Shown here one piece after another: positions 21,590 to 35,793 of a stretch of 64,000 bases of DNA (the first letter of the stretch is position 1; every line of letters starts with the position of its first letter). The notes beneath the pieces were generated by a model. The model saw only the letters and a list, made by a program, of their open reading frames with translations, did no database searches and was not told the origin of the DNA. This DNA comes from an uncultured Desulfobacteraceae bacterium (lineage in GTDB: Bacteria > Desulfobacterota > DSM-4660 > Desulfatiglandales > HGW-15), in NCBI GenBank assembly GCA_964418945.1, contig CAYQNR010000005.1, positions 5,771-69,770 on the forward strand, written 5' to 3'. The position numbers and the translations under genes are program-made.

Positions 21590-23527
21590 CTAGATAGTCA
21601 TAGCCGCGTCAAAAGCGCTGGTTGTGGCATTCCAGAGACCAGCCTGTTTGTCGTTGCTGTCACCGACAACATAACTCTCAATCACTGTAGCCCTTAACTG
21701 TCTGATGATTTCATAATTAGCGTTCGCTTTGATACCTAACGCCAGGATAACAGTGTCAAACACCGGATTTTCTTCTTTGTTGTCCTTTTTGATAACAACA
21801 TAATCTTTCGTTACATCAATCAACTTTGTCTCAGGCCTAAAGTCAACGTTATGCTTTTCTAATATGTCGAATAGTGCGTAAGCATTGATCGGTGAGGAAT
21901 CTGTCCCGAGCTTTTCCCGGGACAGAACATCGATTAAAGTCACAGTTTTGCCAGCCTGTAAAAGGTTCAAAGCCGTTTCACAGCCTGTCAAACCGGCACC
22001 GACGATTAAGATATTCCTGCCAATATGAATATTGTCCTTATCTATATCACCGACCCAAATAACTTTTGACCTATCTTGATAGGTGAACTTCGGAATGTTG
22101 GGGGGAGCCCCAACAGCTATAATAAGGGCGTCTGCGTTTTCTTTGGCAATCAGCTCGGGAGTCGCCTCGGTAGAAAGTCTCACATCAATATTCGCGCATT
22201 GTCCTGTCATTCGAACAGACCACTCAAGATATTCTCGCAAATCTGTTTTAAAAGAGGCTCTGCTAGCTTCATATAAGAGTCCACCTAATCGCGGATTCTT
22301 TTCAAACAAGATGACGTCATGCCCCCGTTCAGCTGCAGTTCTGGCGGCTTCCAGACCAGCCGGACCACCACCGACGACAACGACTTTTTTCTTGCTTTTT
22401 GACGCGGGAATATACTGATAATCCAGTTCACGTCCCAACACTGGATTAACCGCGCATCGAGGGGGTTTCATCTCAAAGTGGCTTCTACTGATACATATAT
22501 TACAGCGTATACATGGGCGAATCTTATCCTCCTGACCACGTTCCAATTTATTCACGGTTTCCGGATCAGCGATTAGTTGGCGACCTAAAGCGACCAAATC
22601 CACCTTTCCTTCCGCTATGGCCTTGTCAGCCGCTTCCAAAGTGACCGCGCCAACAACACTAACCGGGATATGCAGGGCTTTTTTAAACTTGGCGGCGTAC
22701 TCAATGTTAATGTTATGGTCCATGTAAGTCGGGGGGAAAATATATGGTGTTAGCTTATTGATAGCCAGATTACCCCTGGAGACATGTAAGATGTCGACTT
22801 TATCCTGGATGATCTTAGCGAATTCAATGACCTCCTGGATGTCCGGTGATCCGGGAACCATGTCAATGGCGCTGATACGGTACTCAATCGCCAACTTGTC
22901 ACCAACCTCGGCCCGAATGGCCTCAAGAACCTCAACCGCGAAACGACATCGATTCTCAAAAGACTGGGGACCATATTGATCTGTCCGTCGATTAAATACT
23001 TTTGAAAACAGAAGGGCGGGTAATTGGCAATGGGCACCGTGAACCAAAACCATATCTCCATCAGCCTTCAATACCGTGGCTGCCGCCTTCGCGTAGTCCT
23101 CGATAAGATCTTTAAGTTCTTTTTCGGTCAACAAATTACAGTCGATTTCCATTGGTATGCCGACGGAGCTCTCAACTTCGTGTGTGCCGAAGTATGAAGC
23201 GATTGGTACAAATTCAACACAAGCTTTTGAGCCAAAGCGTTTAACCGCTTCACACCATTCCGACAGATAGACGACCATAAAATCATCACTCATCCCAACA
23301 ATATGATGAGCTACAGGCGGCAACACTCGATTTATAAACCCGCAACCTAAAGTAACCGTTGCTGCCCCACCTTTACCGAATGGTTTGGAAAACTCTATCA
23401 TCTCTCGAGTAATGTGATTATCGTAGGAAGCCAGAAAGTTGTAAATTGGGGCATTAGTAATACGGTTTTTAAGAATCAAATTTCCTATTTTGATGGGTTT
23501 AAGTAGATTTGGATATTTGGTAATCAT
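21590..23527 (-). CDS. OYE-type flavin/Fe-S/FAD oxidoreductase (2-enoate reductase / 2,4-dienoyl-CoA reductase family)
   Basis: An N-terminal TIM-barrel OYE region is followed by the cluster motif CIRCNICISRSHFEMKPPRC and then VVVVGGGPAGLEAARTAAERGHDVILFEK. Confidence 0.85.
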   Translation of the reverse strand: MITKYPNLLKPIKIGNLILKNRITNAPIYNFLASYDNHITREMIEFSKPFGKGGAATVTLGCGFINRVLPPVAHHIVGMSDDFMVVYLSEWCEAVKRFGSKACVEFVPIASYFGTHEVESSVGIPMEIDCNLLTEKELKDLIEDYAKAAATVLKADGDMVLVHGAHCQLPALLFSKVFNRRTDQYGPQSFENRCRFAVEVLEAIRAEVGDKLAIEYRISAIDMVPGSPDIQEVIEFAKIIQDKVDILHVSRGNLAINKLTPYIFPPTYMDHNINIEYAAKFKKALHIPVSVVGAVTLEAADKAIAEGKVDLVALGRQLIADPETVNKLERGQEDKIRPCIRCNICISRSHFEMKPPRCAVNPVLGRELDYQYIPASKSKKKVVVVGGGPAGLEAARTAAERGHDVILFEKNPRLGGLLYEASRASFKTDLREYLEWSVRMTGQCANIDVRLSTEATPELIAKENADALIIAVGAPPNIPKFTYQDRSKVIWVGDIDKDNIHIGRNILIVGAGLTGCETALNLLQAGKTVTLIDVLSREKLGTDSSPINAYALFDILEKHNVDFRPETKLIDVTKDYVVIKKDNKEENPVFDTVILALGIKANANYEIIRQLRATVIESYVVGDSNDKQAGLWNATTSAFDAAMTI

Positions 23528-23734
23528 CGTTTTTTCTCTTTTTCTTTTTGTCAGTTAGGATGGACTGCTCTGTCAATGTCCTGGTATATTACGACTAGAT
23601 ATTCTAATCTTCACTTTCGCCAAAGTGTAGATTACCAAAATAATACTTCAACTCGATCAATTCTGAAAGCGTTCATATAAATTCTAAACTGGACTACTTA
23701 TCGAACTCTATAGAATTTAGGTATAAGATTGTTT

Positions 23735-23950
23735 TTATGTGATTTGATCCAGTTTTTTGGCCACTTCCTGCATCTGCGGTCGAGAAAGAATTCCCTGGTC
23801 TAATAGTATCGATCCGATACGTCTGTGTTTTCCTGTAAATAAATTCTCTTTAACCTGAATATCCAGTGCATCCACAATCTGATCGGGAGAAGCGAATCCC
23901 ATTCTTACAGCTAACACACCAAATCTAATTTCAATATCTTCTGTTTCCAT
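23735..23950 (-). CDS. Stand-alone T2SSE_N/MshEN-like domain protein (71 aa)
   Basis: Two copies of the RxGxxLLxxGxL....L...L..Q-type motif are present: RFGVLAVRMGFASPDQIVDALDIQ and RIGSILLDQGILSRPQMQEVAKKL. Confidence 0.6.
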   Translation of the reverse strand: METEDIEIRFGVLAVRMGFASPDQIVDALDIQVKENLFTGKHRRIGSILLDQGILSRPQMQEVAKKLDQIT

Positions 23951-24036
23951 TTTCCCCTCTAATAAAGCAATATCTTATAAAAGGTGGAGTCTGTTCAAGG
24001 ATTATGCCAGTAATAGGATTTTCTATAATCAAGATA

Positions 24037-24999
24037 TTAGTGCTTAGTGACGGGGTTATTCAGATATTCGGGGAAATTGGCTAAGTCCGCCCTTAAGCTA
24101 TGACCCCTCTGTACGGACAAACTATCCATAGCAAAAGCAACACGACCGCTTACGTCTTTCAAGAGGAGAAGGTCATTTTTTCTGAATCCTTTTGGTCTTG
24201 AAAGGGAGTCAACATAGATCACGCCTCTGATACTATAACGGCTGGTTATGGGCACACACATGGCCGACCTTATATTCATTAACTGTAAGGATTCGGTGAT
24301 TTTATCATCTTCATCTTCCTTTTCATCTGAATCTTGAACCATTACAGGTTTATCCATAATCAGGGCCTTCTCTACTAATTCCCTGTTATAAATCTTCTTT
24401 GGATGATCAACCGGTTTCCTTGATCGATATGTTATATTAATAAAATCTCCTGTTTGATCGTCAATTGTAATAATGACGCACCGATCAACCCTCTTGAAAA
24501 GATCAAATATACCATCCAATAATTTATTGAATATTCCCTTGAGATCTTTCGATTCCATGAGGGACCTGTTCATGTTATAAATAAATTCCAGATTCTTTTT
24601 AATGGTCAGAACCCTGTTCGGGTTAACAAACTCTCCGTGTTCATCTACTTCGTTGCTAAAACCTGCTGAATCCAGAAACGGCTTAAGAGTTGATTCGGAC
24701 ATCTTGCCAAGGCCGAGGATTGTCATCCCGATCACTATGGGAACGCCCTCTTTTACCTCAGTTTCAACTCCAGGATTTAAGTCTTTACCGTCCACAAAGG
24801 TCCCGTTTTTGCTGCCCAGATCTGTTATAAAATACCTGTTACCTTCGATGCGGATCTTGAAGTGATTTCGGGAAATATTTCTATCCGCTATTTTTATGTC
24901 ATTTGCGGAATGCCTGCCTACAAGGTATACTTTACCCGGCTTCAATTTGAAACATTCGCCCTGTCCTTTTCCAACCAGTATAAACAGATTGAATTCCAT
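24037..24999 (-). CDS. FHA-domain plus GAF-domain signalling protein
   Basis: The FHA core is GKVYLVGRHSANDIKIADRNISRNHFKIRIEGNRYFITDLGSKNGTFVDG. The C-terminal half is GAF-like (...AMCVPITSRYSIRGVIYVDS...). Confidence 0.8.
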   Translation of the reverse strand: MEFNLFILVGKGQGECFKLKPGKVYLVGRHSANDIKIADRNISRNHFKIRIEGNRYFITDLGSKNGTFVDGKDLNPGVETEVKEGVPIVIGMTILGLGKMSESTLKPFLDSAGFSNEVDEHGEFVNPNRVLTIKKNLEFIYNMNRSLMESKDLKGIFNKLLDGIFDLFKRVDRCVIITIDDQTGDFINITYRSRKPVDHPKKIYNRELVEKALIMDKPVMVQDSDEKEDEDDKITESLQLMNIRSAMCVPITSRYSIRGVIYVDSLSRPKGFRKNDLLLLKDVSGRVAFAMDSLSVQRGHSLRADLANFPEYLNNPVTKH

Positions 25000-25225
25000 T
25001 TGGGTCTTTACCCTGCGTGTATTAAAGAATAAGGAATCTTTAGATAAATAGAACTAACATATATTATACATTAATTTTTGTGGCTTGAAAACATTTTAAG
25101 ATACCGGCATCCAAGAAAAAATGCCAAGAATTGTTGCTGAGTGTTCCGGGCTGTGAAAAAGGTATAGATCAGGTAGAAATAGAGATTATTGAACTCAAAT
25201 CCAGTTCTGTTAGAATGTCAACTGA

Positions 25226-25608
25226 TCATTTGTCTGCGTTCTTCCTCATTTTCTCCTTGAGAATAAGGATGACGTTGGCTGCCGCTCCGATCAGAAACAA
25301 GGCTGGGAAGACGATAACAGCTAGGACAAAAAAAGCGGTTCATCCCCGCCGGGACCCCAGAATTCTTCACCAAACAAGGCGATAAAAAGACCATACACGA
25401 AATTGTGTACTATCACGCAGACCGGCATGCCTGTGGCTGAAACGCCGGTCAATATGAACAGCCTCTTCTGTGTTTTGCTCTCGCCATATCTGCCTGTCAG
25501 CACCGTAAGCACCACCCCCAGGACACCGAATGCAATCGCGAGGGCAGCAAGGAGGGGAAACGGAAGTCTTATGCCTCGCCCGACCGCCAGCGCGAGAACA
25601 ATATGCAG
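25226..25608 (-). pseudogene. Small membrane protein interrupted by a frameshift in a homopolymer
   Basis: The frame ...LTGVSATGMPVCVIVHNFVYGLFIALFGEEFWGPGGDEPLF runs into a T7 run (forward A7 at 25328..25334). It continues in the next frame as FVLAVIVFPALFLIGAAANVILILKEKMRKNADK*. The start codon is unclear. Confidence 0.3.
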
Positions 25609-25922
25609 CTATTTATGATTATTAGCAGTAATTGGATGATATCACAATCAGTTCTTGATTCTAAATTATATTTTAATCGAAGGAACGGGGGACTCGGTTT
25701 TAGCAAGTGAAGGTATTCCGTGATGTTATCCGCCATGCTTTTTCTCTGGACACTAGAGTGAGGCCTATAGTATGTAAATTATACGCGATTGGTGGATAGA
25801 ACAGGTTAAATATTTCTCACCATTGTTTTTTAAATAATATCATTTTCGGAGTTACCCATCAGATTGGCAAAATCTCCCACAGAGTATTGGCGGCCCGCTG
25901 TGGTTAATAAAAGAGGTTATTG

Positions 25923-26972
25923 ATGGATACAGAGAAGGTATCTACCCTGACGGGAAGTAAAGGTGGTTCGGACAGGCTGGAATCCGTAATAAGCGGATCT
26001 ATTCTTTTTTTCCTGGTCATAATAGGCATCTTGATATTTTTTCAGCAGTTCCGTTACGACGAGGATAAGTTCAGTGCTTCGGTCATACAGCCTGGATCAG
26101 CTATTGATACAACGGCCTCTTCGTCAGAGGCAAAGGTTTCCCTCAAAATTCTCGGTCTGGAGCCTGAAAATTATATCTCCATGTCCGACCTGGAATCTTT
26201 CGACCAATATACCTTATCCGATAAAATAAACGGAAAGGCCGACGGGTATCTGGCTTCCGGCTTTGTTCAACTGGTTTGCACACGATTTGTCCATTCCTCG
26301 AATCAGGAAAACTGGTTTGAATTCTTTCTTTACAATATGGGTTTCCCGAGAAACTCGTTCTCCGTCTACAGCAAGCAAAAACGTGAAGGGGTTACGGAAC
26401 AGGATTTTACGAAATTTGCATATTCCACTGAAAACGCGGTTTTTTTTGTCCATGGCAAATATTACATTGAAATCGTCGCGGCTGTGGAGGATGAAGCCGT
26501 CATCCAAGATATGATTTTAATGGCCAAAAACTTTATGGATAAATTCCCGGGAGGCACTGTTGAGTTGCCGGAGTTGGAATATCTACCGGCCGATAATCTG
26601 GATCGAGAGAGTTTAAGCCTAATACTTAATAACGGATTCGGTTTCAAGGATTTCGATAACATTTTTACCGGGACTTATAGGTTGGAAGGCCATAGAATAC
26701 TGGCCTTTGTATCCTTGAGGGAAACCGCTGAAGAGGCAGAATCTCTCGCCATTGCTTATGATAGGTTTCTGTCCGAGTTTATAGGCCAGGAAAGGCTTGA
26801 ACCGGAAAGGGATCAAATCCCTGGAGTGAAGATAGCGGATCTATTCGGTGAGTATGAGATCTTTTTTGTAAAGGGTAATGTCCTCGCAGGCATCCACGCC
26901 GCCTCGGACAAGGCAATTGGAGAAGAAATAGCCTTTCAACTTTATACGAGAATAAGCGAGCTGGTGAAATGA
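25923..26972 (+). CDS. Membrane-anchored hypothetical protein (possibly DUF6599-like)
   Basis: There is a single N-terminal TM helix (ISGSILFFLVIIGILIFF). LSDKINGKADGYLASGF resembles the INGGAExY motif I associate with DUF6599, from memory and unverified. The stop overlaps the next start (ATGA). Confidence 0.6.
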   Translation: MDTEKVSTLTGSKGGSDRLESVISGSILFFLVIIGILIFFQQFRYDEDKFSASVIQPGSAIDTTASSSEAKVSLKILGLEPENYISMSDLESFDQYTLSDKINGKADGYLASGFVQLVCTRFVHSSNQENWFEFFLYNMGFPRNSFSVYSKQKREGVTEQDFTKFAYSTENAVFFVHGKYYIEIVAAVEDEAVIQDMILMAKNFMDKFPGGTVELPELEYLPADNLDRESLSLILNNGFGFKDFDNIFTGTYRLEGHRILAFVSLRETAEEAESLAIAYDRFLSEFIGQERLEPERDQIPGVKIADLFGEYEIFFVKGNVLAGIHAASDKAIGEEIAFQLYTRISELVK

Positions 26973-27952
26973 ACACGGTGATAAAGCACGGAAAAATCAG
27001 CCGTCGCCGATTTATAAATCGTTTGATCAAGGCGGGTCTGTCTATTGCCGGTGCCGGTGCCCTGGGCTACTTCTTCTATGATCCGGTCGGACCTTCGGGT
27101 TCACTGGAGGGAGAATTGGTATCGATCCCTGATTTTTCAATGCCCCGGGCCGGGAAAAAGATGGCGGTGGTGAGGGGATCTGTCCGGAAGGAAACCTTAA
27201 ACAGGGCCTTTAAGGCCCTCGGCGGCATGGAGAGTTTTGTTAAAAAAGGAGATCGGGTATTGCTTAAGGTAAACGCGGCATTTGCTTCGCCTCCCATGCT
27301 GTCAGCCACCAGTCATCCCGAACTTATTACCGCTTGCATAGATCTCTGTTACCGGGCCGGAGCAGAAATGGTTCGGGTAACCGATAATCCGATCAACGAT
27401 CCTGCCGCCTGTTTCAGGTTGACCGGAATCGAGGCCGCGGTTAAATCCGCAGGTGGTGAACTGGTCTTTCCCAGGGATAGTCTTTTCAGACGGACAACCG
27501 TGAAGGGAGGCAGTTTAATAACAAACTGGCCCTTGCTTTTTTCGCCTCTTGAGGGGATTACAAAATTGATAGGGATTTCTCCGGTTAAGGGTCACCAGAG
27601 AAGCGGGGCGTCGATGGCTATGAAAAACTGGTACGGCCTTCTGGGCGGACAAAGAAATATCTTTCACCAGGATATTCACAATGCCATCAAGGAGTTGTCC
27701 ATGATGGTAAGACCGACCCTGGTAATCCTCGACGGCACGACAAGCATGATGACCAACGGACCCACAGGAGGGTCCCTGTCTGATCTGAAGAACACGGATA
27801 CGATGATCGTCAGCACGGACCAGGTGGCGGCCGATGCCTTTGGGTGTTCTTTGCTCGATAAAGAGGTACGGGACCTGCCGTTCATATCCAAGGCTGCTGA
27901 AGCCGGATCAGGGACGGCGGAGTATGAATCATTAAAACCGATTTTTATTTAG
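26969..27952 (+). CDS. Tat-signal DUF362 domain protein
   Basis: The Tat signal is KISRRRFINRLIKAGLSIAGAGALG. DUF362-type blocks are GDRVLLKVNAAF, SHPELITACIDLCYRAGA, MAMKNWYGLLGG and LVILDGTTSMMTNGPTGG. Confidence 0.8.
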   Translation: MNTVIKHGKISRRRFINRLIKAGLSIAGAGALGYFFYDPVGPSGSLEGELVSIPDFSMPRAGKKMAVVRGSVRKETLNRAFKALGGMESFVKKGDRVLLKVNAAFASPPMLSATSHPELITACIDLCYRAGAEMVRVTDNPINDPAACFRLTGIEAAVKSAGGELVFPRDSLFRRTTVKGGSLITNWPLLFSPLEGITKLIGISPVKGHQRSGASMAMKNWYGLLGGQRNIFHQDIHNAIKELSMMVRPTLVILDGTTSMMTNGPTGGSLSDLKNTDTMIVSTDQVAADAFGCSLLDKEVRDLPFISKAAEAGSGTAEYESLKPIFI

Positions 27953-28002
27953 ACAGGGTTTTCCCGGTTGTAAGTGAAGGGAAGGAAATTCTATTCACAA
28001 AT

Positions 28003-29766
28003 TTGATAGGGTCAGGATCTAAAGTGAGAATAGTAACCGTCAGAAGGATAAGCCAGGTATTCTTCTTTTGTCTATTTATATGGTTCTGTGTGGTCTCCAC
28101 CTTCGGCACGGAGTGGTGGCAATTAAGGGGCTGGCCGGTCAACTTGATCCTCCATCTGGACCCTCTCGTGGCAATCGGGACATTACTTACCACTCATACT
28201 ATATATAGAGGAGTGTCTTGGGCTTTGCTGACTATTGTCCTGACAGTCATATTCGGCAGATTCTTTTGCGGATGGGTATGCCCCTTCGGGGCATTGCATC
28301 AGTTTGTAGGGTATCTCGCAAACAGGGGGAGGAAATTAAAAGACAGGGTCAACTCTAACAGGTATCGAAAAGCGGCTTCACTAAAATATCTTTTTTTGAT
28401 CGCTTTTCTGGTCGCAGCGGCCATACCGCTGGGGAATAAAACTATGCTGTTTACCGGTCTGCTGGACCCTATCCCTTTCCTCCACCGTTCAATCAACATA
28501 ATCCTCCTTCCCATAGTTGATCAATTTGTCCATATGCTTTCGGTGGATGCCCGTATCTATGAAGGGGCCTTCTTGATAGGTGTCTTATTTGTGGCTGCTG
28601 TATCTATGAACCTGCTGATCCCGCGCTTTTATTGTCGTTTTATCTGTCCCGCCGGAGCCCTGATGGCTCTTATCAGCAGATACTCCATCTGGCGGATAGG
28701 AAAGACGGAGGCTGTCTGCTCCAATTGCATGCAGTGTGAAAAGGCCTGCGAGGGCGGCTGTGAACCTTCCGGAGTGATCAAGATTAGTGAGTGTGTCTTG
28801 TGTTTTAATTGCTATGACCAGTGCAAGGACAGGGTAGTGAAATACCGGACAGTCGCGTCCGAAGGCGGTGAAATATCAAACCCCGACCTTACCCGTCGGG
28901 GATTGATCCTGTCTTCATTGTCGGGGCTTATGGCCGTACAGTTGTTCCCGTTGAGCAGGGGAACCGCTACTACCGGAGATAATACCATGGTGAGGCCGCC
29001 GGGGGCGCTTCCGGAAGAGGAGTTTTTGCAGAGGTGTATCAAATGCGGTCAGTGCATGCGAATTTGCCCTACCAATATCATCGTGCCTTCTGGCCTATTC
29101 GGAGGCCTGGAAAATCTCTGGACTCCGGTGCTGGACTTTACGGGGGGCACCAGTGGGTGTCAATTGAATTGCACTGCCTGCGGCCATATTTGCCCCACTT
29201 CTGCAATAAGGCCCATCAATCTTGAAGAGAAGCTGGGTATTGATGAATTTGCAAAAAAGGGACCGATAAGGATGGGAAGCGCTTATGTGGACCGCACCCG
29301 TTGCCTGCCCTGGGCCATGCGCAGGCCCTGCATTGTATGCCAGGAGAATTGTCCTTTGACACCAAAGGCCATATATGTTACGGAGGCATATGAGACCGCC
29401 CGTTCGGGTATAATGTATATAGTCTCAGCGGAAGGGAAAGAAATCCGTGTCTCAGGAACACGAATGGAGACGGGGCAGTACGCTACGGGTGACTATTATG
29501 TGCTGGCAGGAAAGACTGAAGGAAAACCGGCCAGATACAGGATATCTTCCAACAGCAAAGATAGTTTGACAGTCAACACGGAGGATCCACCGAATCTTAA
29601 GAATGATGACAGGATAGAGATACAGGTCCGTCTTCAACAGCCGCATATCGACCTTGAAAGGTGTACAGGATGCGGTATATGTGTGCACGAGTGTCCGGTG
29701 GGCGGAAATAGGGCCATCAGGGTAACATCCGACAACGAATCAAGGAGCGCGAAAAAATTGGCCTAA
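28003..29766 (+). CDS. NapH-like membrane polyferredoxin fused to a NapG-like periplasmic ferredoxin
   Basis: The N-terminal half has TM helices with FFCGWVCPFG and YCRFICPAG plus CSNCMQCEKAC/CVLCFNCYDQC. The junction reads TRRGLILSSLSGLMAV...VRPPGALPEEEFLQRCIKCGQCMRICP, followed by CTACGHICP, CIVCQENCP and CTGCGICVHECP. The start codon is uncertain (TTG at 28003 or GTG at 28024). Confidence 0.8.
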   Translation: MIGSGSKVRIVTVRRISQVFFFCLFIWFCVVSTFGTEWWQLRGWPVNLILHLDPLVAIGTLLTTHTIYRGVSWALLTIVLTVIFGRFFCGWVCPFGALHQFVGYLANRGRKLKDRVNSNRYRKAASLKYLFLIAFLVAAAIPLGNKTMLFTGLLDPIPFLHRSINIILLPIVDQFVHMLSVDARIYEGAFLIGVLFVAAVSMNLLIPRFYCRFICPAGALMALISRYSIWRIGKTEAVCSNCMQCEKACEGGCEPSGVIKISECVLCFNCYDQCKDRVVKYRTVASEGGEISNPDLTRRGLILSSLSGLMAVQLFPLSRGTATTGDNTMVRPPGALPEEEFLQRCIKCGQCMRICPTNIIVPSGLFGGLENLWTPVLDFTGGTSGCQLNCTACGHICPTSAIRPINLEEKLGIDEFAKKGPIRMGSAYVDRTRCLPWAMRRPCIVCQENCPLTPKAIYVTEAYETARSGIMYIVSAEGKEIRVSGTRMETGQYATGDYYVLAGKTEGKPARYRISSNSKDSLTVNTEDPPNLKNDDRIEIQVRLQQPHIDLERCTGCGICVHECPVGGNRAIRVTSDNESRSAKKLA

Positions 29767-29839
29767 CCATATTATTGGATTATGAAATCCAAAGGTACAT
29801 GGTTCCCATAATCCTGATCAGGGCAGGTAAGGAAAATAC

Positions 29840-31087
29840 ATGAAGACAGAAGAGAAGAGAATGGACCGGAGGACATTCTTAAGGACCACAGGCATAGGGG
29901 GTGCCTCTCTGGCGCTTTCCGCCGGGTTTGGCGGAAAAGTCTTGGCTGCTGAAATCGAGGATCACATTTCGTCAAAGGAGATGCCCAGTCGCATTCTGGG
30001 GAAGACAGGTGTCCCCGTGTCTATCCTCGGCATGGGTGGTAGTATTGATACCACCGGGTACCAGCTACTATTAAGGATTGGTCTTAATATGGGTGTTAAT
30101 TATTGGGATACTTCTCATAATTACGGAAACGGCAGAAACGAGGAGGTGATCGGTCAGTTTTACAGCAAATATCCGGAAGACAGGAAAAAGGTTTTCCAGG
30201 TTACCAAGGCCTCCAGGACAACTGAACCGGAAGGAATGACCAGGCAGCTAAATCTTTCGCTTGAACGCATGCAGACAGACTATGTAGACCTCTATCTTAT
30301 GCATATGCTGCAAGATCCCGGACTGCTCACGCCTGAAATAAAGGCGTGGGCTAAGCAGAAAAAGAAGGAAGGCAAAATAAGATTCTTTGGATTCAGTTGC
30401 CATGGCAACATGGCCAGGCTGCTTATGCATGCGGTATCTCTAGGCTGGATAGACGTGGTAATGTCATCCTATAATTATCAACTAATGAAGGATGATGATA
30501 TAAAAAGAGGGATTGAGTCCTGCGCCAGAGCCAACATAGGTCTGGCAGCCATGAAAACACAGGGACAGCGATTTGCGCCGCCCGGGATTCGGGCCCCGGG
30601 TGAAATCCAGGGGTGGGAGAACCTTCGGATCATGAACCATTTCATGGATAAAGGTTACACACCGGAGCAGGCAAAATTGAAGGCGGTATGGGAAGACAAA
30701 AGAATAACCACTTGTGTATCGGAAATGACTAACCTTACCATGTTGAAGGATAATGTGGCTGCAGCTACCGATGGTGCGCAATTGTCAGGTAGAGACAAGG
30801 AGATGCTGGATAATCTCGCTCGGAATAATCGCAACCTTTACTGTCAGGGCTGTATGCGTTGCGAATCGGTTCTGGGCTCAGAAAGCAGGGTCCCGGATGT
30901 CCTGCGGTACATGATGTATTATAACAGCTATGGAAAAACCAATGACGCCAGGAGATTGTTCAGAGAGTTGCCCGAGATCGTAAGAAACAGTCTGGCTTCA
31001 AGAGATTATTCGCGTGCGGAACGGGTATGTCCTAATCATGTTGAGATAGGCAAGGCAATGAGACGAGCTGTCAATCTGCTGGCTTAG
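29840..31087 (+). CDS. Tat-exported aldo/keto reductase with a C-terminal Cys cluster (COG1453-like), copy 1
   Basis: The Tat signal is MDRRTFLRTTGIGGASLALSAGFGGKVLA|AE. AKR residues lie in WDTSHNYGNG, VTKAS and LMHM. The C-terminus carries YCQGCMRCE...CPNH. Confidence 0.85.
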   Translation: MKTEEKRMDRRTFLRTTGIGGASLALSAGFGGKVLAAEIEDHISSKEMPSRILGKTGVPVSILGMGGSIDTTGYQLLLRIGLNMGVNYWDTSHNYGNGRNEEVIGQFYSKYPEDRKKVFQVTKASRTTEPEGMTRQLNLSLERMQTDYVDLYLMHMLQDPGLLTPEIKAWAKQKKKEGKIRFFGFSCHGNMARLLMHAVSLGWIDVVMSSYNYQLMKDDDIKRGIESCARANIGLAAMKTQGQRFAPPGIRAPGEIQGWENLRIMNHFMDKGYTPEQAKLKAVWEDKRITTCVSEMTNLTMLKDNVAAATDGAQLSGRDKEMLDNLARNNRNLYCQGCMRCESVLGSESRVPDVLRYMMYYNSYGKTNDARRLFRELPEIVRNSLASRDYSRAERVCPNHVEIGKAMRRAVNLLA

Positions 31088-31248
31088 ACAGTCCCTATTC
31101 CCTGTTTAACATTTTGTGGTTCACATTCTTGAATCCCGGAATCTTTGGCCCTCTTCTCTTACGTAATGGGGAGGAAGAATATTTCATGTGAATAATCACG
31201 AATTCAGCAATCTCTTATAAAAACTTTTAGATGTGGAGGTGAATTACA

Positions 31249-32472
31249 ATGTCGCCTGAAAAGAAAAAGATGGATCGAAGGGCATTCTTAAAGACTGCTG
31301 GGATAGGGAGCGCCTCCCTGGCCCTTTCGGCCGGGCTTTCGAATAGGGCCCTGGCCTTTGAAGATACGAACAAGAGTTCATCGAAAGAAATACCCACTCG
31401 CGTTCTGGGGAAGACGGGTGTACGGGTACCTATCCTTGCCCTGGGGGGTATTATTGACTGGACTATAAACCAGAATATCTTAAGGATGGCTTTTAATATG
31501 GGTGTCCATTACTGGGATACGGCCCCTGTCTATGGAAATGGCAAAAGCGAGATAGGAATAGGCCAATACTTCGCCAAGTATCCTGAAGACAGGAAAAAGA
31601 TATTTCTCGCATCAAAGGCCTCCGGTGCGAATAACCCCGAAGGAATGACCCGATGTCTGGAACTGTCTTTTGAAAGGATGAACACCGATTATATTGATCT
31701 ATATTTGATGCATGGTCTGCGAAGCCCGGAATTGCTTACACCTGAGGTAAAGGCATGGGCAGAGCAGAAAAAAAATGAAGGAAAGATAAGATTCTTCGGA
31801 TACACCACCCATGTCAATAATTCCGAGATGTTTGTCCAGACATCAACCCTGGGCTGGATAGATGCTGTAATGGCGATCTATAATTATCGAATAATGACTG
31901 ACGGTGATATCTCCAAGGGTATAGAGGCATGCAAAAAGGCAGGTATCGGATTTGTTGCTATGAAAGTGTTCGGCCACAGATTTATGTCCGCTGAATCTCC
32001 TGAGGACCTCGAGGTTACAAATTATTTCATGGAAAAGGGTTACACGCCGGAACAGGCAAAACTAAAGGCGGTGTGGAAAGATGAAAGGATTGCCTCATCT
32101 TGTGTGTTAATGAAGAATCTTACTATGTTAAAGGATAACGTCGCGGCCGCCACTGATAACTTGGAATTGTCCAAGCGTGAAATAAATATGCTTAAAAGGC
32201 TGGCTGAAAGCACACGTAATTCTTATTGCCAAGGGTGCGGGCGATGTTTATCCGTCATGGGATCGGAGAGCGGGATACCTGATGTGCTTCGCTATATGAT
32301 GTATTACAACGGCTATGGAGAAAGGGATCGGGCCAGGGAACAATTCAGGCACCTGCCTGAGTCTGTTAAGAAGGACCTGGCGTCAAGAGACTATTCCCAT
32401 GCCGAATGCGCATGTCCTCACAATATTGAAATCGGCAAGGCGATGAGGGAAGCCGTAAAGATACTGGGATAA
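31249..32472 (+). CDS. Tat-exported aldo/keto reductase with a C-terminal Cys cluster, copy 2
   Basis: The Tat signal is MDRRAFLKTAGIGSASLALSAGLSNRALA|FE. AKR residues lie in WDTAPVYGNG, ASKAS and LMHG. The C-terminus carries YCQGCGRCL...CACPHN. It shares long identical blocks with copy 1. Confidence 0.85.
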   Translation: MSPEKKKMDRRAFLKTAGIGSASLALSAGLSNRALAFEDTNKSSSKEIPTRVLGKTGVRVPILALGGIIDWTINQNILRMAFNMGVHYWDTAPVYGNGKSEIGIGQYFAKYPEDRKKIFLASKASGANNPEGMTRCLELSFERMNTDYIDLYLMHGLRSPELLTPEVKAWAEQKKNEGKIRFFGYTTHVNNSEMFVQTSTLGWIDAVMAIYNYRIMTDGDISKGIEACKKAGIGFVAMKVFGHRFMSAESPEDLEVTNYFMEKGYTPEQAKLKAVWKDERIASSCVLMKNLTMLKDNVAAATDNLELSKREINMLKRLAESTRNSYCQGCGRCLSVMGSESGIPDVLRYMMYYNGYGERDRAREQFRHLPESVKKDLASRDYSHAECACPHNIEIGKAMREAVKILG

Positions 32473-32492: not shown

Positions 32493-33365
32493 TTAACTCA
32501 AATTGTGTTCAGCAGCCCACTCCGCGACATGGATGGGGGTTTCGAGCACTGTGGCTCCTGCGGCCCTCAGGGCCTCCTGCTTGCTTGGTACCGTCCCTGA
32601 GGCGCCGCGCACGATGGCACCCGCGTGGCCCATGCGTTTTCCCTGCGGTGAATAACGCCCCGCGATGTACACTGCTACAGGCTTGGTCATCCTCCTTGCT
32701 ATGAATCCGGCGGCCTTCTCTTCCTGTTCTCCGCCTACCTCGCCCACTATAATAACTGCATCGGTGCCTTCATCTTCCTCAAACAGCTCAAGTATATCCA
32801 CGAGATTTCTCAGTACAACCGGATCGGCACCCATGCCGACAACGGTGCTCTGCCCGACCTTTTTTTCCGATAGTATGCCCGCGAATTCATAGGAGAGGGT
32901 CCCGCTTCGTGAAATAATACCGACCCGGCCGGGCGCAAACATTGAGGCCGGCATGATGCCCATCTTTCCTTTGCCTGGAACGAGGATGCCGGGGGTGTTG
33001 GGACCCAGGGCGAACACGCCCAAGTCAATGGCATAGCCGCGCATCTTCATCACATCCCTGACAGGGATATTTTCGGGGACAACGACAATGAGCTTGATCC
33101 CCGCCTCAATAGTCTCCATAAAGGCGTCCAGGACAAAGGCTGCGGGGACGAAGAATACGGAGGCGTTAGCCCCTGTTTCCTTTACGGCCTCATGGACGTT
33201 GTTGAAGACGGGAAGTCCCTCCACGGTGGCCCCACCTTTGCCCGGGGTGACGCCGCCCACGGTCTTTGTGCCGTATTCAAGCATCCAGTGGGTTTGGGTG
33301 CTTCCTTGGCGGCCCGTGATTCCTTGCACCAGGACACGTGTTGAATCGTTTATAAGGATACTCAT
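32493..33365 (-). CDS. sucD: Succinate--CoA ligase (ADP-forming) alpha subunit-like
   Basis: Motifs: VLVQGITGRQG, SRSGTLSYE, and the phospho-His loop GKRMGHAGAIV. Confidence 0.85.
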   Translation of the reverse strand: MSILINDSTRVLVQGITGRQGSTQTHWMLEYGTKTVGGVTPGKGGATVEGLPVFNNVHEAVKETGANASVFFVPAAFVLDAFMETIEAGIKLIVVVPENIPVRDVMKMRGYAIDLGVFALGPNTPGILVPGKGKMGIMPASMFAPGRVGIISRSGTLSYEFAGILSEKKVGQSTVVGMGADPVVLRNLVDILELFEEDEGTDAVIIVGEVGGEQEEKAAGFIARRMTKPVAVYIAGRYSPQGKRMGHAGAIVRGASGTVPSKQEALRAAGATVLETPIHVAEWAAEHNLS

Positions 33366-33367
33366 CG

Positions 33368-34507
33368 TTAACCTCGTCCTACAATTTTATATAGGCGCTC
33401 TATGGCCTTTTCGGTAGCGGCTTCAGTCACCACGTGGATACCGGCTGAGCGCAAGATCTCCCATGTCTCCTCCTGGCGGTTTCCAAGGGCCTTTGCTACG
33501 ACAGGGATCTTTACGTTGTGTTCCTTTATGTAACGGGCCACGCCTTTAGCACCTTCGTGGATGGGATTGATGCCTCCGTACACATTAATGAATACGGCTC
33601 TAAGGTCAGGTTTCATCATGACAAGCTCCATACATTTATAGAGCAGATCAGCGGTAATCCCGCCGCCTGTCTCCATAAAGTTGGCAGGTTTCATATTTTG
33701 GCCGATGATGTCCGTGGAGGCCATACCGAGCCCGGCACCCGAGGCGATGAGTCCGATATCACCCTCAAGGTCCACGTAAGTGACTCCTATCTCCCTGCCC
33801 CTGCGTTCAAGAGGGTTCTCTATCCTATCGATACGATCAGGCAGGGGAAAGCTTATCCTGGATATGGCAGAATCGTCTATCTCCAATACGGCGTCAACCG
33901 CGATGAGTCCGCCGTTCGGGAGAACCACAAGGGGATTTATTTCGCAGATAAGGGCCTCATAGCTCATGGCGATGTTGTATAAGCGGGTGATCACACCTGT
34001 CCAGGAGGTGACGAGTTGAGGCTTGGTATCCAGCATCCTTAAGAGGGCACGTGCTTGATACGGGTAAAAACCGAAAGACGGGTCGATATGGATTGAGGCG
34101 ATGTTTTCCGGCGAGGTCCTCGCGACCTCTTCGATAAGCATGCCGCCTTGAGTGCTTACCACTATAACCGGCGTTCCCGAATATCCGTCTACCGTGATGC
34201 CCAGATAAAGCTCATTCGCGATCTCCACCTTCTCACACACCAAGATCTTCTGAACCGGATATCCTTTTATTTCGCTTGAGAACAGCTCTTCCCATACCCT
34301 GTCCAGTTCTTCGGGAGAGGCGGCCTCCTTAATGCCGCCTGCCAGGCCTCGGCCTCCTACCAGGACCTGGGCCTTGAGAATCACCGGATATCCAATGCCA
34401 TCCGCTATATTCTGGGCGTCTTCCACGCTCTCAGCGATACTGCGGCGGGGAACAGGGATGCCGTTCTGTCCGAAAATATCCAAAGCCTCGTATTCATGAA
34501 GTCTCAT
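33368..34507 (-). CDS. sucC: Succinate--CoA ligase beta subunit-like (ATP-grasp)
   Basis: Motifs: MRLHEYEALDIFGQNGIPVP and VILKAQVLVGGRGLAGGIK. It lies directly upstream of the alpha subunit with a 2-nt gap. Confidence 0.85.
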   Translation of the reverse strand: MRLHEYEALDIFGQNGIPVPRRSIAESVEDAQNIADGIGYPVILKAQVLVGGRGLAGGIKEAASPEELDRVWEELFSSEIKGYPVQKILVCEKVEIANELYLGITVDGYSGTPVIVVSTQGGMLIEEVARTSPENIASIHIDPSFGFYPYQARALLRMLDTKPQLVTSWTGVITRLYNIAMSYEALICEINPLVVLPNGGLIAVDAVLEIDDSAISRISFPLPDRIDRIENPLERRGREIGVTYVDLEGDIGLIASGAGLGMASTDIIGQNMKPANFMETGGGITADLLYKCMELVMMKPDLRAVFINVYGGINPIHEGAKGVARYIKEHNVKIPVVAKALGNRQEETWEILRSAGIHVVTEAATEKAIERLYKIVGRG

Positions 34508-34728
34508 AATGTTTTTCCTTTAGCTTGAGTCCTTGAACCCTAATCAAATTCTTGATGCAAGATACCAAACGGACGATGTTCGAAATATTCGATCGTGAAG
34601 GATAAAATGGCTATGCATATATGTCAATGAGAATAATTATATATTTAATCAAAATGTAATTCTATTGTGTTTTGTGTAAAAGACAATATTTGATTGCATA
34701 TTTAATTTATTTTTTGTAAAATATTTGC

Positions 34729-35430
34729 ATGAGCAAAGATAAGAAAAAGAACAACAAAAAGCGACATGAAGACAGCACCCAGATTGCCTATCATGGCATC
34801 AGGCACATGCTTTACAATAAGGAGCTTGTGCCGGGCCAGAGAATAGCCTACAGAGATCTGGCTGAAAGGCTTGAATTGAGTCCCACACCGATTATTCAAG
34901 CCCTGAAATGGCTGGAATTACAGGGTTATGTGCTGCATGAACCGAACCGTGGTTATGTCCTGGCGCCTTTCAGCGTAAAAGAGTTAGAGGAGCTTTATGA
35001 GATAAGGGAGCTTATCGAACCTTCTCTTGTCCCGGCCGCTATCGAGAAGATTGATAAACAAGGTCTCAGCAAACTCAAGGCGGCGCTTGAGGCTCACCTT
35101 TCTGCGGAAAGGGATTACTACCTGAAGGAAAGGCTGTTTAAAAACAGGGAATTCCATATGTCCCTTGCCTCTCTTTCCGGTAAAGCTACGCAGGTCCGGA
35201 TCCTGCAAAACGTCTTTGATATGCTTTTCCTCAAATACGGGGGCAACTATTTTCCCATAGCTTCAATATCGGCCACCGACCAGGCTCACCAAGAGGTGTA
35301 TGACGCCTTCGCGCTGCGTAGTATGGAAAGGGCGCAGTCCGTGCTCAAGAATCACTTGGCAAATGTGAAAATACAGGTGATGTCCAGTATCAAAAAGATA
35401 CTCGCGGAGCAAGAACGGACTGAGTTCTGA
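34729..35430 (+). CDS. GntR-family (FCD-type) transcriptional regulator
   Basis: The wHTH reads LVPGQRIAYRDLAERLELSPTPIIQALKWLELQGYVLHEPNRGYVLAP, and the C-terminus is helical and FCD-like. It is divergent from sucC. Confidence 0.85.
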   Translation: MSKDKKKNNKKRHEDSTQIAYHGIRHMLYNKELVPGQRIAYRDLAERLELSPTPIIQALKWLELQGYVLHEPNRGYVLAPFSVKELEELYEIRELIEPSLVPAAIEKIDKQGLSKLKAALEAHLSAERDYYLKERLFKNREFHMSLASLSGKATQVRILQNVFDMLFLKYGGNYFPIASISATDQAHQEVYDAFALRSMERAQSVLKNHLANVKIQVMSSIKKILAEQERTEF

Positions 35431-35532
35431 GGCACCGGGGCCTGTTATTACCTAAATCCAGGGGATGTTCAAAAAGGCAGGCTGTTTCTGTTGTTTAGAA
35501 TCAGGGCTAATGGTAGAAGGCACAAGGTTTTT

Positions 35533-35577
35533 TATCCGCCTTCGCAGAAGACCACGTGCTTGCCCGAGGGGCTCCAT
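35533..35577. repeat. ~44-bp dispersed repeat, copy 1
   Basis: TATCCGCCTTCGCAGAAGACCA...GGGGCTCCAT also occurs at 41131..41174. Confidence 0.6.
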
Positions 35578-35793
35578 CAATCACTGGGTTCTAAAGTGGA
35601 TTTTAACTTGCGCCCCGCACCATTAGGCTTTAATCTGTGGTCTCAACTAGACAGGCATAGCCATATTTTCGATGACTATTGAAACAGGGCTGCTTAGAAT
35701 CGCCGGCAGGCCTTTATTGACTGTTAATCTTTGATACCCCGTGAATGCTACGGGGTAATTTATTCAAAAACGAAAAAAGGTTTTTAAGATAAG

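Follow-up and report, generated by a model that had tools for sequence, protein, structure and literature searches.

A conserved five-gene cluster combining a NapH–NapG-type polyferredoxin with Tat-signal aldo/keto reductases that carry a predicted nickel-pincer-type pocket

The window studied here, a 64,000-nucleotide stretch of contig CAYQNR010000005.1 from an uncultured Desulfobacteraceae bacterium, contains at positions 25923–32472, on the + strand, five genes encoding a DUF6599 protein, a DUF362 protein, a NapH–NapG fusion polyferredoxin, and two aldo/keto reductases (AKRs) with signals for twin-arginine translocation (Tat). This cluster is real, conserved, and uncharacterized. On balance, we consider it probable that its two AKRs are Fe–S-bearing hydride enzymes of the nickel-pincer type, exported by Tat and attached to an electron module of the NapGH type in the membrane. 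The genes, referred to below as g1 to g5, are as follows.

25923..26972, + strand: g1, DUF6599 protein, 349 aa; PF20244
26969..27952, + strand: g2, DUF362 protein, 327 aa; PF04015
28003–29766, + strand: g3, NapH–NapG fusion polyferredoxin, with matches to the NapH and NapG models
29840..31087, + strand: g4, Tat-signal AKR, 415 aa; Aldo_ket_red and TIGR01409
31249..32472, + strand: g5, second Tat-signal AKR, 407 aa; 61% identity to g4

All five open reading frames were confirmed at these coordinates, and their junctions are a 4-nt overlap followed by gaps of 50, 73, and 161 nt. An original prediction, made from the sequence alone, had described a five-gene, same-strand cluster with short or overlapping junctions, and this composition was borne out by the reading frames, the Pfam and NCBIfam domain calls, and the motifs: searches with profiles for DUF6599, PF04015, NapH/NapG, and AKR matched all five genes. 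It had also stated that no system with this composition was characterized, and our literature searches found no description of one.

Cofactor Pocket of the AKRs

Both g4 and g5 match the Aldo_ket_red family (PF00248) above its cut-off (E = 2e-27 and 2e-29, respectively) and have the tetrad typical of AKRs, D90, Y95, K123, and H155, of which Asp, Tyr, and Lys are found in 129/129 homologues, and His, in 113/129. The canonical ligands of the nicotinamide, which by the AKR1B1 numbering are S159, N160, Q183, and Y209, have a different fate. The equivalent of Asn160 is T, C, A, S, V, or G and never N, the equivalent of Gln183 is mostly T or S, with V, I, A, or R as rare variants, and never Q, and the equivalent of Tyr209 is M or I, in each case in 129/129 homologues, while the equivalent of Asn272, N305, is kept in 128/129. 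Thus, of the features of canonical AKRs dependent on NAD(P)(H), the barrel and the tetrad are present, and the Ser–Asn pair, the Gln, and the stacking Tyr are missing from the entire set. Given the absence of the Asn160, Gln183, and Tyr209 equivalents, g4 and g5 are unlikely to be normal NAD(P)H users, as had originally been proposed.

A profile search of the PDB picked up 9YEB, the structure of NphT, and the unusual AKR motifs proved common to both. NphT is an AKR-fold protein that binds the nickel-pincer mononucleotide (NPMN) instead of NAD(P)H (Semersky et al., Nat Chem 2026, PMC13524815). Its K200 is the covalent thioamide tether of NPMN, and the K200A mutation abolishes binding; H144 coordinates the nickel, which is solvent-exposed, I199 is packed against the pyridine ring, and polar contacts come from T142, D47, and H106 (PMC13524815). 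The enzyme moves hydride among sugars and aldehydes in a redox-neutral manner and needs no partner, and its His/Lys motif is absent from characterized NAD(P)H-dependent AKRs and marks 798 putative nickel-pincer AKRs (PMC13524815). Further hallmarks of the family are a covalent NPMN adduct of +450 Da, bound nickel, and a cavity too small for AMP. The positions aligned by hmmalign are listed below in the order NphT; g4/g5; Tm1743, an AKR that binds NADP.

H144; H188; F150
K200; K239; S200
I199; M238; Y
T142; S186 in g4, T186 in g5; S
D47, Y52, K75, H106; D90, Y95, K123, H155; D, Y, K, H

The NPMN-type motif hence comprises S186, H188 (nt 30401–30403), M238, and K239 (nt 30554–30556) in g4 and T186, H188 (nt 31810–31812), M238, and K239 (nt 31963–31965) in g5. 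Among the homologues, the pocket His is conserved in 128/129, and the pocket Lys, in 129/129. The nickel-coordinating His and the tether Lys of NphT are therefore both present, together with counterparts of T142, I199, D47, and H106.

Taken together, g4 and g5 share with NphT the AKR TIM barrel, the tetrad, the His/Lys pair, Ser/Thr and Met/Ile at the T142 and I199 positions, the loss of the SN, Q, and YS nicotinamide ligands, and, in two lineages, adjacency to larE/B/C. They differ in that NphT is a protein of 291 aa with no signal peptide in the sequence examined and no Fe–S domain, whereas g4 and g5 add a Tat signal, a C-terminal four-Cys domain of ~100 aa, and a membrane polyferredoxin as a neighbor; the NphT paper does not mention periplasm, twin-arginine, signal peptide, iron–sulfur, or ferredoxin (PMC13524815). 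Judging by the conserved pocket residues, g4 and g5 may well bind NPMN.

Linkage to lar Genes

The discovery of the NphT family relied on adjacency to larBCE as its criterion (PMC13524815). The five families were scored in two sets of neighborhoods, 80 genome loci centered on the polyferredoxin and 80 metagenome loci centered on the AKR. In two loci, L042 and L151, larE-larB-larC were found directly downstream of the AKR gene by a motif scan and then by NCBIfam, with all Lar calls in both loci above the NCBIfam equivalog cut-offs. The first one (L042:7712-15651, a Verrucomicrobiae metagenome-assembled genome (MAG), CAWHOL010000019.1) is a seven-gene same-strand operon DUF6599-DUF362-polyferredoxin-AKR-LarE-LarB-LarC, in which the polyferredoxin is of a short 515-aa form, and it is the only locus joining the full module to the biosynthesis of the nickel-pincer cofactor. 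The order in L151 is AKR-LarE-LarB-LarC. The AKRs of both loci have the twin arginine (RR) of the Tat signal, the tetrad, Ser/His, Met/Lys, and all four Cys, and the loci are divergent, the AKRs being 46% identical and the Lar proteins, 37–50%.

The NphT-type pocket and the larE/B/C adjacency suggest that hydride chemistry is probably retained, by means of a bound cofactor that is loaded in the cytoplasm. In this respect, our results depart from the original prediction, according to which the Fe–S motif replaced the pyridine-nucleotide chemistry: the pocket instead carries the NphT-type His/Lys pair, and larE/B/C abut the AKR gene in two lineages.

To our knowledge, nickel-pincer enzymes are few, namely, the LarA racemases/epimerases, one ornithine cyclodeaminase, and NphT (June 2026), and none of them has been described as exported, Fe–S-bearing, or coupled to an electron-transfer chain. 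Our literature searches found no link between nickel-pincer enzymes and export, periplasm, or Tat, nor between AKRs and Tat signals, and nothing relevant for DUF362 or DUF6599 in this context, nor for COG1453.

Tat Signals and the Four-Cys Domain

The Tat-signal model TIGR01409 (cut-off 16.7 bits) matches g4 with 18.0 bits and g5 with 21.2 bits. The signal of g4 occupies aa 1–36 and contains DRRTFLR, with the RR at nt 29867–29872 and a by-eye cleavage site between VLA and AE; that of g5 contains DRRAFLK, with the RR at nt 31276–31281 and a by-eye cleavage site between ALA and FE. The RR is kept in 135/136 AKR homologues. The DUF362 protein g2 has a Tat-type N-terminus as well, SRRRFI, with SRRRF at aa 11–15, and an RR motif is found in 67/77 DUF362 homologues. 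Hence g4 and g5, which show the motifs of Tat substrates, are predicted to be Tat-targeted, and the originally proposed targeting of the DUF362 protein, by its RRRF signal, and of both AKRs is upheld by this conservation and by the TIGR01409 scores.

In the AlphaFold model of g4 (mean confidence, pLDDT, 82.7), aa 1–45 are disordered, as expected of a signal peptide, the TIM barrel spans approximately aa 47–315, and a confidently modeled helical C-terminal domain at aa 317–415 carries four Cys. Foldseek retrieved ordinary solved AKRs with target-normalized TM-scores of 0.75–0.79; no solved structure among them covers the C-terminal domain, for which no meaningful match was obtained. The Cys motif is C335xxC338xxC341...C397-P398 in g4 and C327xxC330xxC333...C389-P390 in g5, and in g4 numbering C335, C338, and C341 are conserved in 129/129 homologues, C397 in 128/129, and P398 in 127/129. 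Each AKR thus combines an RR signal with a CxxCxxC...CP motif, as initially noticed, and the combination extends to the homologues. The C-terminal domain is a putative site of a single [4Fe-4S] cluster, its occupancy being suggested by the Cys pattern.

A variable low-complexity insertion rich in Pro, Gly, and Gln lies just past the K239 strand, at the AKR loop-B position (window 30575–30610, aa 246–257 of g4). It reaches ~45 aa, is long in many stand-alone paralogues (P0006, P0017, P0037, P0042), and is short and disordered in g4.

Polyferredoxin

The product of g3 can be divided into three parts.

28003..28878, + strand: N-terminal half, NapH-like, with four transmembrane (TM) helices, a pair of CX3CP motifs, and a pair of ferredoxin-type Cys motifs on the cytoplasmic side
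28879..28962, + strand: internal RR and fifth transmembrane domain (TMD5); R298-R299 (nt 28894–28899), TMD5 aa 300–318, R319
28963..29766, + strand: C-terminal half, NapG-like, with four CxxCxxCxxxCP-type motifs; predicted periplasmic

The likelier start of g3 is GTG 28024, which is favored because an identical database cluster representative, P0121, is 580 aa long. The NCBIfam NapH model matches aa 7–285 (E = 1e-19), and the NapG model, aa 311–461 (E = 4e-19), along with many Fer4 matches. The CX3CP motifs are CGWVCP (aa 89–94) and CRFICP (aa 211–216), and the cytoplasmic ferredoxin-type motifs at aa 239–274 are C239xxCxxCxxxC and C264xxCxxCxxxC; the cluster motifs of the NapG-like half lie at aa 345–355, 386–397, 434–450, and 554–564, which makes six ferredoxin-type Cys motifs and two CX3CP in total. 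All motif Cys of both halves are invariant in 28 homologues.

NapH is known to have both termini in the cytoplasm, four TM helices, a pair of CX3CP motifs, and, in its C-terminal part, two 4Fe-4S motifs on the cytoplasmic side (PMC5928378). All these sequence features are present in g3, as are those of the NapG type, and its positive-rich loops after TM2 and TM4, beside the CX3CP motifs, fit the known NapH topology. Compared with NapGH of Escherichia coli and Wolinella succinogenes, g3 has the same four TM helices, CX3CP, and cytoplasmic 4Fe-4S motifs of NapH and the same RR signal and four periplasmic-side 4Fe-4S motifs of NapG, but it is one fused polypeptide with an extra 90-aa insertion in the NapG-like half, and the clients of the cluster are DUF362 and AKR-fold proteins rather than a molybdoenzyme. 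The insertion (window 29365–29637, aa 455–545), located between the third and fourth ferredoxin motifs, is ~90 aa long, Cys-free, and has a conserved GDYY; it matches no Pfam family and, judging by protein length, appears absent from the 515-aa polyferredoxins of L042 and L084.

A closer relative is the polyferredoxin (PFD) of delta proteobacterium MLMS-1 (Q1NSB0), a NapH–NapG fusion with five TM helices and a twin-arginine directly before TMD5 (PMC5449189). Reporters fused after its TMD5 are exported in a Tat- and RR-dependent manner (Tooke et al., eLife 2017, PMC5449189). With residues 1–364 of the tested protein, taken from the supplement of that paper, g3 shares 32% identity (E = 5e-40) and is collinear with PFD aa 40–360, and the alignment spans the entire NapH half with both CX3CP and both cytoplasmic ferredoxin motifs, as well as PDL-RR with TMD5 (PDLGRRRLL in PFD). 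The two proteins have in common the fusion, the five TM helices, the RR–TMD5 arrangement, and the cytoplasmic and extracytoplasmic Fe–S motifs; the MLMS-1 protein is longer between TMD3 and TMD4 and in the cytoplasmic Fe–S region. Only its biogenesis has been studied, with no function or DUF362/DUF6599/AKR context reported (PMC5449189).

The RR before TMD5 is invariant in 28/28 homologues of g3, and TMD5 is much less hydrophobic than TMD1 (summed Hessa-scale values of +4.3 and +0.5, respectively). Thus, g3 displays the traits of dual Sec/Tat polyferredoxins, that is, four TM helices, an RR, a low-hydrophobicity TMD5, and an Fe–S domain. Due to the invariant RR before a weak TMD5 and the homology to MLMS-1 PFD, the NapG-like half is predicted to be periplasmic, and R298-R299/TMD5, to be the point of hand-over from Sec to Tat. 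The earlier proposal of a NapH and NapG fusion with its NapG-like half outside the cytoplasm agrees with this topology. By its sequence, g3 is a member of the polytopic polyferredoxin family.

Conservation and Gene Neighborhoods

Among the candidates scored, the polyferredoxin family has 3350 matches at E ≤ 1e-10, and the AKR family, 2975 matches at the same threshold, with names that are generic at best in both cases. The polyferredoxin-anchored loci split into 48 with close homologues and 32 with distant ones (Polyangia, Bryobacterales, some Planctomycetota). The close set comprises Desulfobacterota, Planctomycetota (Pirellulales, Phycisphaerae, Ca. Kuenenia), Verrucomicrobiota, Sumerlaeota, and one Myxococcales genome. 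In it, DUF362 is directly upstream of the polyferredoxin gene in 41/44 loci, DUF6599 is upstream in 36/40, and at least one AKR is nearby in 36/40, with two to four AKRs in nine loci. In the distant set, DUF362 is upstream in 20/28 loci, an undercount, as nearly all these calls were made by single-sequence phmmer, DUF6599 is upstream in 7/28, and at least one AKR is nearby in 1/30. The recurrence of this gene order in at least five phyla, along with the RR kept in the AKR and DUF362 homologues, indicates that the cluster is more than a chance arrangement, and the co-occurrence of the five genes expected by the original prediction is thus seen in relatives.

The AKR often stands alone or with DUF6599 only, and the distant polyferredoxins mostly lack an AKR, which makes DUF362 and the polyferredoxin the deepest pair. 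The AKR, often with DUF6599, is a frequent, often multi-copy companion that is also found elsewhere in the genomes. A polyferredoxin gene is near the AKR in 11/37 AKR loci with at least 2 kb upstream. The AKRs located 3' of the polyferredoxin in other phyla score best against the g5 paralogue.

Individual loci show several variants of this organization. A Pirellulales MAG (L038:11746-16985) has the polyferredoxin followed by four tandem AKR paralogues, which suggests several substrate specificities on one membrane module. In L145:10001-12199, L141:3538-5851, and L156:4440-6683, AKR and DUF6599 form two-gene units, in which either gene may come first, and the sequence covered contains neither a polyferredoxin nor DUF362; such units suggest that DUF6599 works directly with the AKR. 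In Bryobacterales MAGs (L084:8196-11425, L081, L085), DUF6599, DUF362, and a short polyferredoxin occur with no AKR, and these acidobacterial loci imply that the three-gene core can stand alone. Divergent tatC and tatA lie directly upstream of DUF6599-DUF362-polyferredoxin-AKR-AKR in L005:4648-5766 (JGI 3300036766, Ga0373622_0000631).

The neighbors in polyferredoxin loci with no AKR (methyltransferase, sulfite-oxidase-family Mo enzyme, M64 peptidase, Band 7 protein) share no common theme, and none was adopted as an alternative client of the polyferredoxin. In one locus (L028:12258-14266, Deltaproteobacteria bin85 chromosome CP070652.1), DUF6599-DUF362-polyferredoxin is followed by an open reading frame that combines a Tat-like N-terminus with a CMAS-type SAM methyltransferase, and then by a sulfite-oxidase-family Mo enzyme; the Tat-like part may be what a frameshift has left of an AKR signal peptide. 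In L003:6981-7829 (ENA k141_1305682), which has neither DUF362 nor DUF6599, a PyrK-like reductase (FAD_binding_6, NAD_binding_1, DHODB [2Fe-2S]) is encoded directly upstream of polyferredoxin-AKR and may be a cytoplasmic donor to the cytoplasmic clusters of the polyferredoxin.

DUF362 and DUF6599 Proteins

The DUF362 protein g2 matches PF04015 with E = 1e-37, and its invariant residues are K100, N102, D139, C148, K207, H209, K219, H233, D255, D284, and D289. DUF362 and the lactate racemase LarA (DUF2088/Lar_N), a nickel-pincer nucleotide enzyme, belong to a common Pfam clan, CL0471 (PMC11770544). We compared nine LarA sequences, one of which carries the published D72, R75, H108, H174, K184, and H200; of these, K184 is the tether, H200 a nickel ligand, and H174 and H108 are catalytic. 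The spacing H209-x9-K219-x13-H233 of DUF362 resembles H174-x9-K184-x15-H200 of LarA, and the best local hhalign alignment places H209 on H174 and K219 on K184, but it is non-significant (E = 0.1, probability below 1%; E = 0.1–0.19 over the profile comparisons), and H233 is two residues closer than the H200 position. DUF362 also differs from LarA in being ~100 aa shorter, in having a Tat signal, and in having no assignable equivalent of H108. Searches by sequence and by profile found no solved relative of DUF362, and the literature contains no characterized DUF362 protein. The idea of DUF362 as another nickel-pincer protein is to be taken as a lead and not as a result.

The DUF6599 protein g1 matches PF20244 with E = 6e-41 (140.4 bits, cut-off 27), and the family counts 3827 representatives at E ≤ 1e-3, of which 701 remain at E ≤ 1e-30. 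Consistent with its original description as a protein anchored by a single TM segment, one such segment was found: an N-terminal signal-anchor helix (~aa 17–43) is followed by a disordered linker and two alpha/beta modules predicted to be periplasmic (AlphaFold pLDDT 85.4). The RR is found in 0/46 DUF6599 homologues, which have instead a conserved TM segment followed by FxQFxYDP and ~30 invariant polar or aromatic residues, with no Cys ligands. The fold is weakly similar to periplasmic lipid-binding or sensor folds; no solved relative was found by sequence or profile, and no literature on the family. Candidate roles of DUF6599 are those of an anchor, an adaptor, or a substrate-presenting protein. 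In L084, the DUF6599 protein starts, by eye, with a cleavable signal peptide and not with a signal anchor.

Possible Mechanism and Alternative Explanations

We propose that the cluster may represent an envelope redox module composed of two pairs, the polyferredoxin with DUF362 and the AKRs with DUF6599. Sec would insert the first four helices of the polyferredoxin with the cytoplasmic Fe–S sites, and Tat would export TMD5 and the four-cluster NapG-like domain. NPMN, produced by LarB/LarE/LarC, and the [4Fe-4S] cluster would be inserted into the AKR in the cytoplasm, and the folded holoenzyme would then be exported by Tat. Such cytoplasmic insertion would explain the strict Tat dependence and would remove the lack of periplasmic NAD(P)H as a problem. 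In the periplasm, the AKR would use the bound NPMN to move hydride between carbonyls and alcohols, with sugars or aldehydes as possible substrates, while its Fe–S cluster would exchange electrons with the NapG-like domain and, via the NapH-like domain, with the quinone pool; the C-terminal Fe–S domain could plausibly cap an NphT-like solvent-exposed nickel. Beyond the gene content, its conservation, the motifs and folds, the homology to MLMS-1 PFD, and the lar adjacency in two lineages, this scheme is inferred, including the occupancy of the AKRs by NPMN and Fe–S, their contact with the polyferredoxin, the link to quinone, the direction in which electrons flow, the substrates, and what DUF362 and DUF6599 do.

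As for the direction, menaquinol has a potential of about -0.07 V, and aldehydes and ketones, of -0.2 to -0.3 V, so that carbonyl reduction by menaquinol would be uphill, while oxidation of sugars or alcohols runs downhill with quinone as the electron acceptor. By these values, reducing ordinary carbonyls with quinol, the direction implied by the original prediction, is thermodynamically unfavorable and probably the harder one, and we did not adopt it; a dehydrogenase that works in the periplasm and delivers electrons to the quinone pool is no less likely than a reductase.

Several observations weigh against nickel-pincer AKRs attached to the polyferredoxin. No nickel-pincer cofactor is known to us to exchange electrons with an Fe–S cluster. 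No lar genes are present in the 64-kb window or in ~18 kb past its ends on related contigs, where the only AIRC-family gene is purE, and lar adjacency is seen in 2 of ~166 loci, considering local neighborhoods. The mapping on NphT covers its residues 1–204 as numbered in its paper (PDB sequence positions 4–207), with the contacts W218, Y219, and G248 outside, and the overall identity of g4 and g5 to NphT, 26.5%, is no higher than that to a canonical AKR, 27%. The scores of g3 are 70.7 bits with the NapH model and 68.7 bits with the NapG model, far below the equivalog cut-offs of 234 and 269, respectively, and hence its quinol dehydrogenase activity is assumed by analogy; since, in addition, no nap genes (napA, napB, napC) were found in the window flanks or related loci inspected, g3 is not a Nap orthologue. 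Most AKR paralogues stand alone, several of them among unrelated genes, and DUF362–polyferredoxin pairs occur with no AKR in Myxococcota and Acidobacteriota. The gene linkage behind the originally suggested coupling of the AKR with the polyferredoxin is seen for the close polyferredoxins, most of which have an AKR nearby, but is not obligate, as the polyferredoxin is near the AKR in only 4/14 AKR loci with at least 3.5 kb on both sides. Finally, NphT itself is redox-neutral and has no partner requirement (PMC13524815).

The last two points would fit AKRs that are self-contained nickel-pincer shuttles and, like NphT, catalyze disproportionation, transhydrogenation, or epimerization, with the Fe–S cluster being structural or regulatory, the polyferredoxin serving DUF362, and its adjacency to the AKR reflecting shared regulation or shared Tat dependence. 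This agrees with the 10/14 well-flanked AKR loci that have no polyferredoxin nearby, with AKRs located alone among unrelated genes, with the AKR–DUF6599 two-gene units, and with DUF362–polyferredoxin being the deeper pair, found also where no AKR is present. We nevertheless regard it as unlikely, given at least one AKR immediately 3' of the polyferredoxin at 36/40 close loci in four or five phyla and the four Cys kept in all 129 AKRs, the stand-alone copies included; moreover, a redox cluster beside a multi-cluster ferredoxin domain would be the usual signature of electron exchange. Still less probable is the model of the original prediction, in which the AKRs have no hydride cofactor, and the [4Fe-4S] cluster passes single electrons from quinol, via the NapGH-like protein, to the carbonyl. 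The absence of the canonical nicotinamide ligands, the invariant four-Cys motif, the conserved gene order beside the polyferredoxin, and the absence of lar genes from the window all fit this model, but the pocket is not degenerate, being fixed to the NphT set His/Lys/(Ser or Thr)/(Met or Ile), two lineages have larEBC downstream of the AKR, and, apart from the uphill reduction by menaquinol, one-electron ketyl chemistry needs very low potentials.

Independence of free NAD(P)H could in principle be reached in another way. The glucose–fructose oxidoreductase (GFOR) of Zymomonas mobilis is periplasmic and independent of free NAD(P)H due to a tightly bound hydride-carrying cofactor, the non-dissociable NADP with which it is exported by Tat; it has a Rossmann fold, no Fe–S cluster, and no membrane partner. 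Export of the AKRs with tightly bound NAD(P)(H) would be in line with this precedent, with the conserved tetrad and the Asn272 equivalent N305 (128/129), and with a fold matching NAD(P)-dependent AKRs. We rejected it as very improbable, since the carboxamide ligands (Asn160, Gln183) and the stacking Tyr209 are missing in 129/129 homologues; the His/Lys motif reported to be absent from characterized NAD(P)H-dependent AKRs and the lar genes adjacent in two lineages likewise speak against it. A further alternative bears solely on where the electrons come from and leaves room for nickel-pincer AKRs: the polyferredoxin would be a conduit from the cytoplasm to the periplasm, carrying low-potential electrons from ferredoxin or an NAD(P)H-linked reductase to periplasmic clients. 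Two ferredoxin-type and two CX3CP motifs on the cytoplasmic side of the NapH-like half, the unmet NapH/NapG equivalog thresholds, and the PyrK-like FAD/NAD/[2Fe-2S] reductase directly upstream of polyferredoxin-AKR are consistent with such a conduit, and low-potential electrons would make carbonyl reduction feasible. We doubt it, as the PyrK-like neighbor occurs in one locus only, there is likely no haem or other intramembrane cofactor to bridge ~30 Å, and NapH-type membrane modules have been proposed to be quinol-oxidizing domains (PMC5928378).

Returning to nickel-pincer AKRs attached to the membrane module, a more specific version can be offered tentatively, as a possibility that we rank below the general one. 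Here, NPMN would take or give hydride and pass the two electrons singly, in a flavin-like manner, to the enzyme's own [4Fe-4S] cluster, then to the polyferredoxin and the quinone pool, and DUF362 could be another nickel-pincer protein exported by Tat, as well as the ancestral polyferredoxin client. If so, nickel-pincer enzymes would for the first time be found at work outside the cytoplasm, and for the first time electrically wired, forming a new type of periplasmic dehydrogenase/reductase branch of the respiratory chain.

If the AKRs of the window bind NPMN, the export through Tat of a hydride carrier that is already covalently loaded would account for AKR chemistry proceeding without periplasmic NAD(P)H. 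It would also give a physiological context to a polyferredoxin family known so far only for Sec/Tat biogenesis, provide the first functional leads for DUF362 and DUF6599 (~3,800 cluster representatives), and define a widespread envelope redox module of sulfate reducers, Planctomycetes (including anammox bacteria), Verrucomicrobia, and others. These predictions are directly testable with the published protocol of NphT cofactor loading.

Flanking Regions and Gene Boundaries

The start of g1 is ATG 25923, with TTG 25920 also in frame. An unusually long intergenic stretch of ~920 nt (window 25000–25919) lies 5' of g1; its promoter-like sites are weak, and no Rfam match to a riboswitch or another RNA element was found at 24900–26100 at E ≤ 1. 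The promoter and terminator scan of the cluster was uninformative, with counts close to the shuffled expectation, and it yielded no convincing + strand terminators between the genes from g1 to g5. A convergent succinyl-CoA ligase gene ends 20 nt past g5. The genes at 21590–24999 and 32493–37254 have no evident tie to the cluster: they encode an OYE-type flavoenzyme fused to an FAD/NAD domain (2,4-dienoyl-CoA reductase-like), an FHA-GAF protein, the alpha and beta subunits of succinyl-CoA ligase, a GntR/FCD regulator, and an FAD oxidoreductase of the DAO family that carries a BFD [2Fe-2S] domain.

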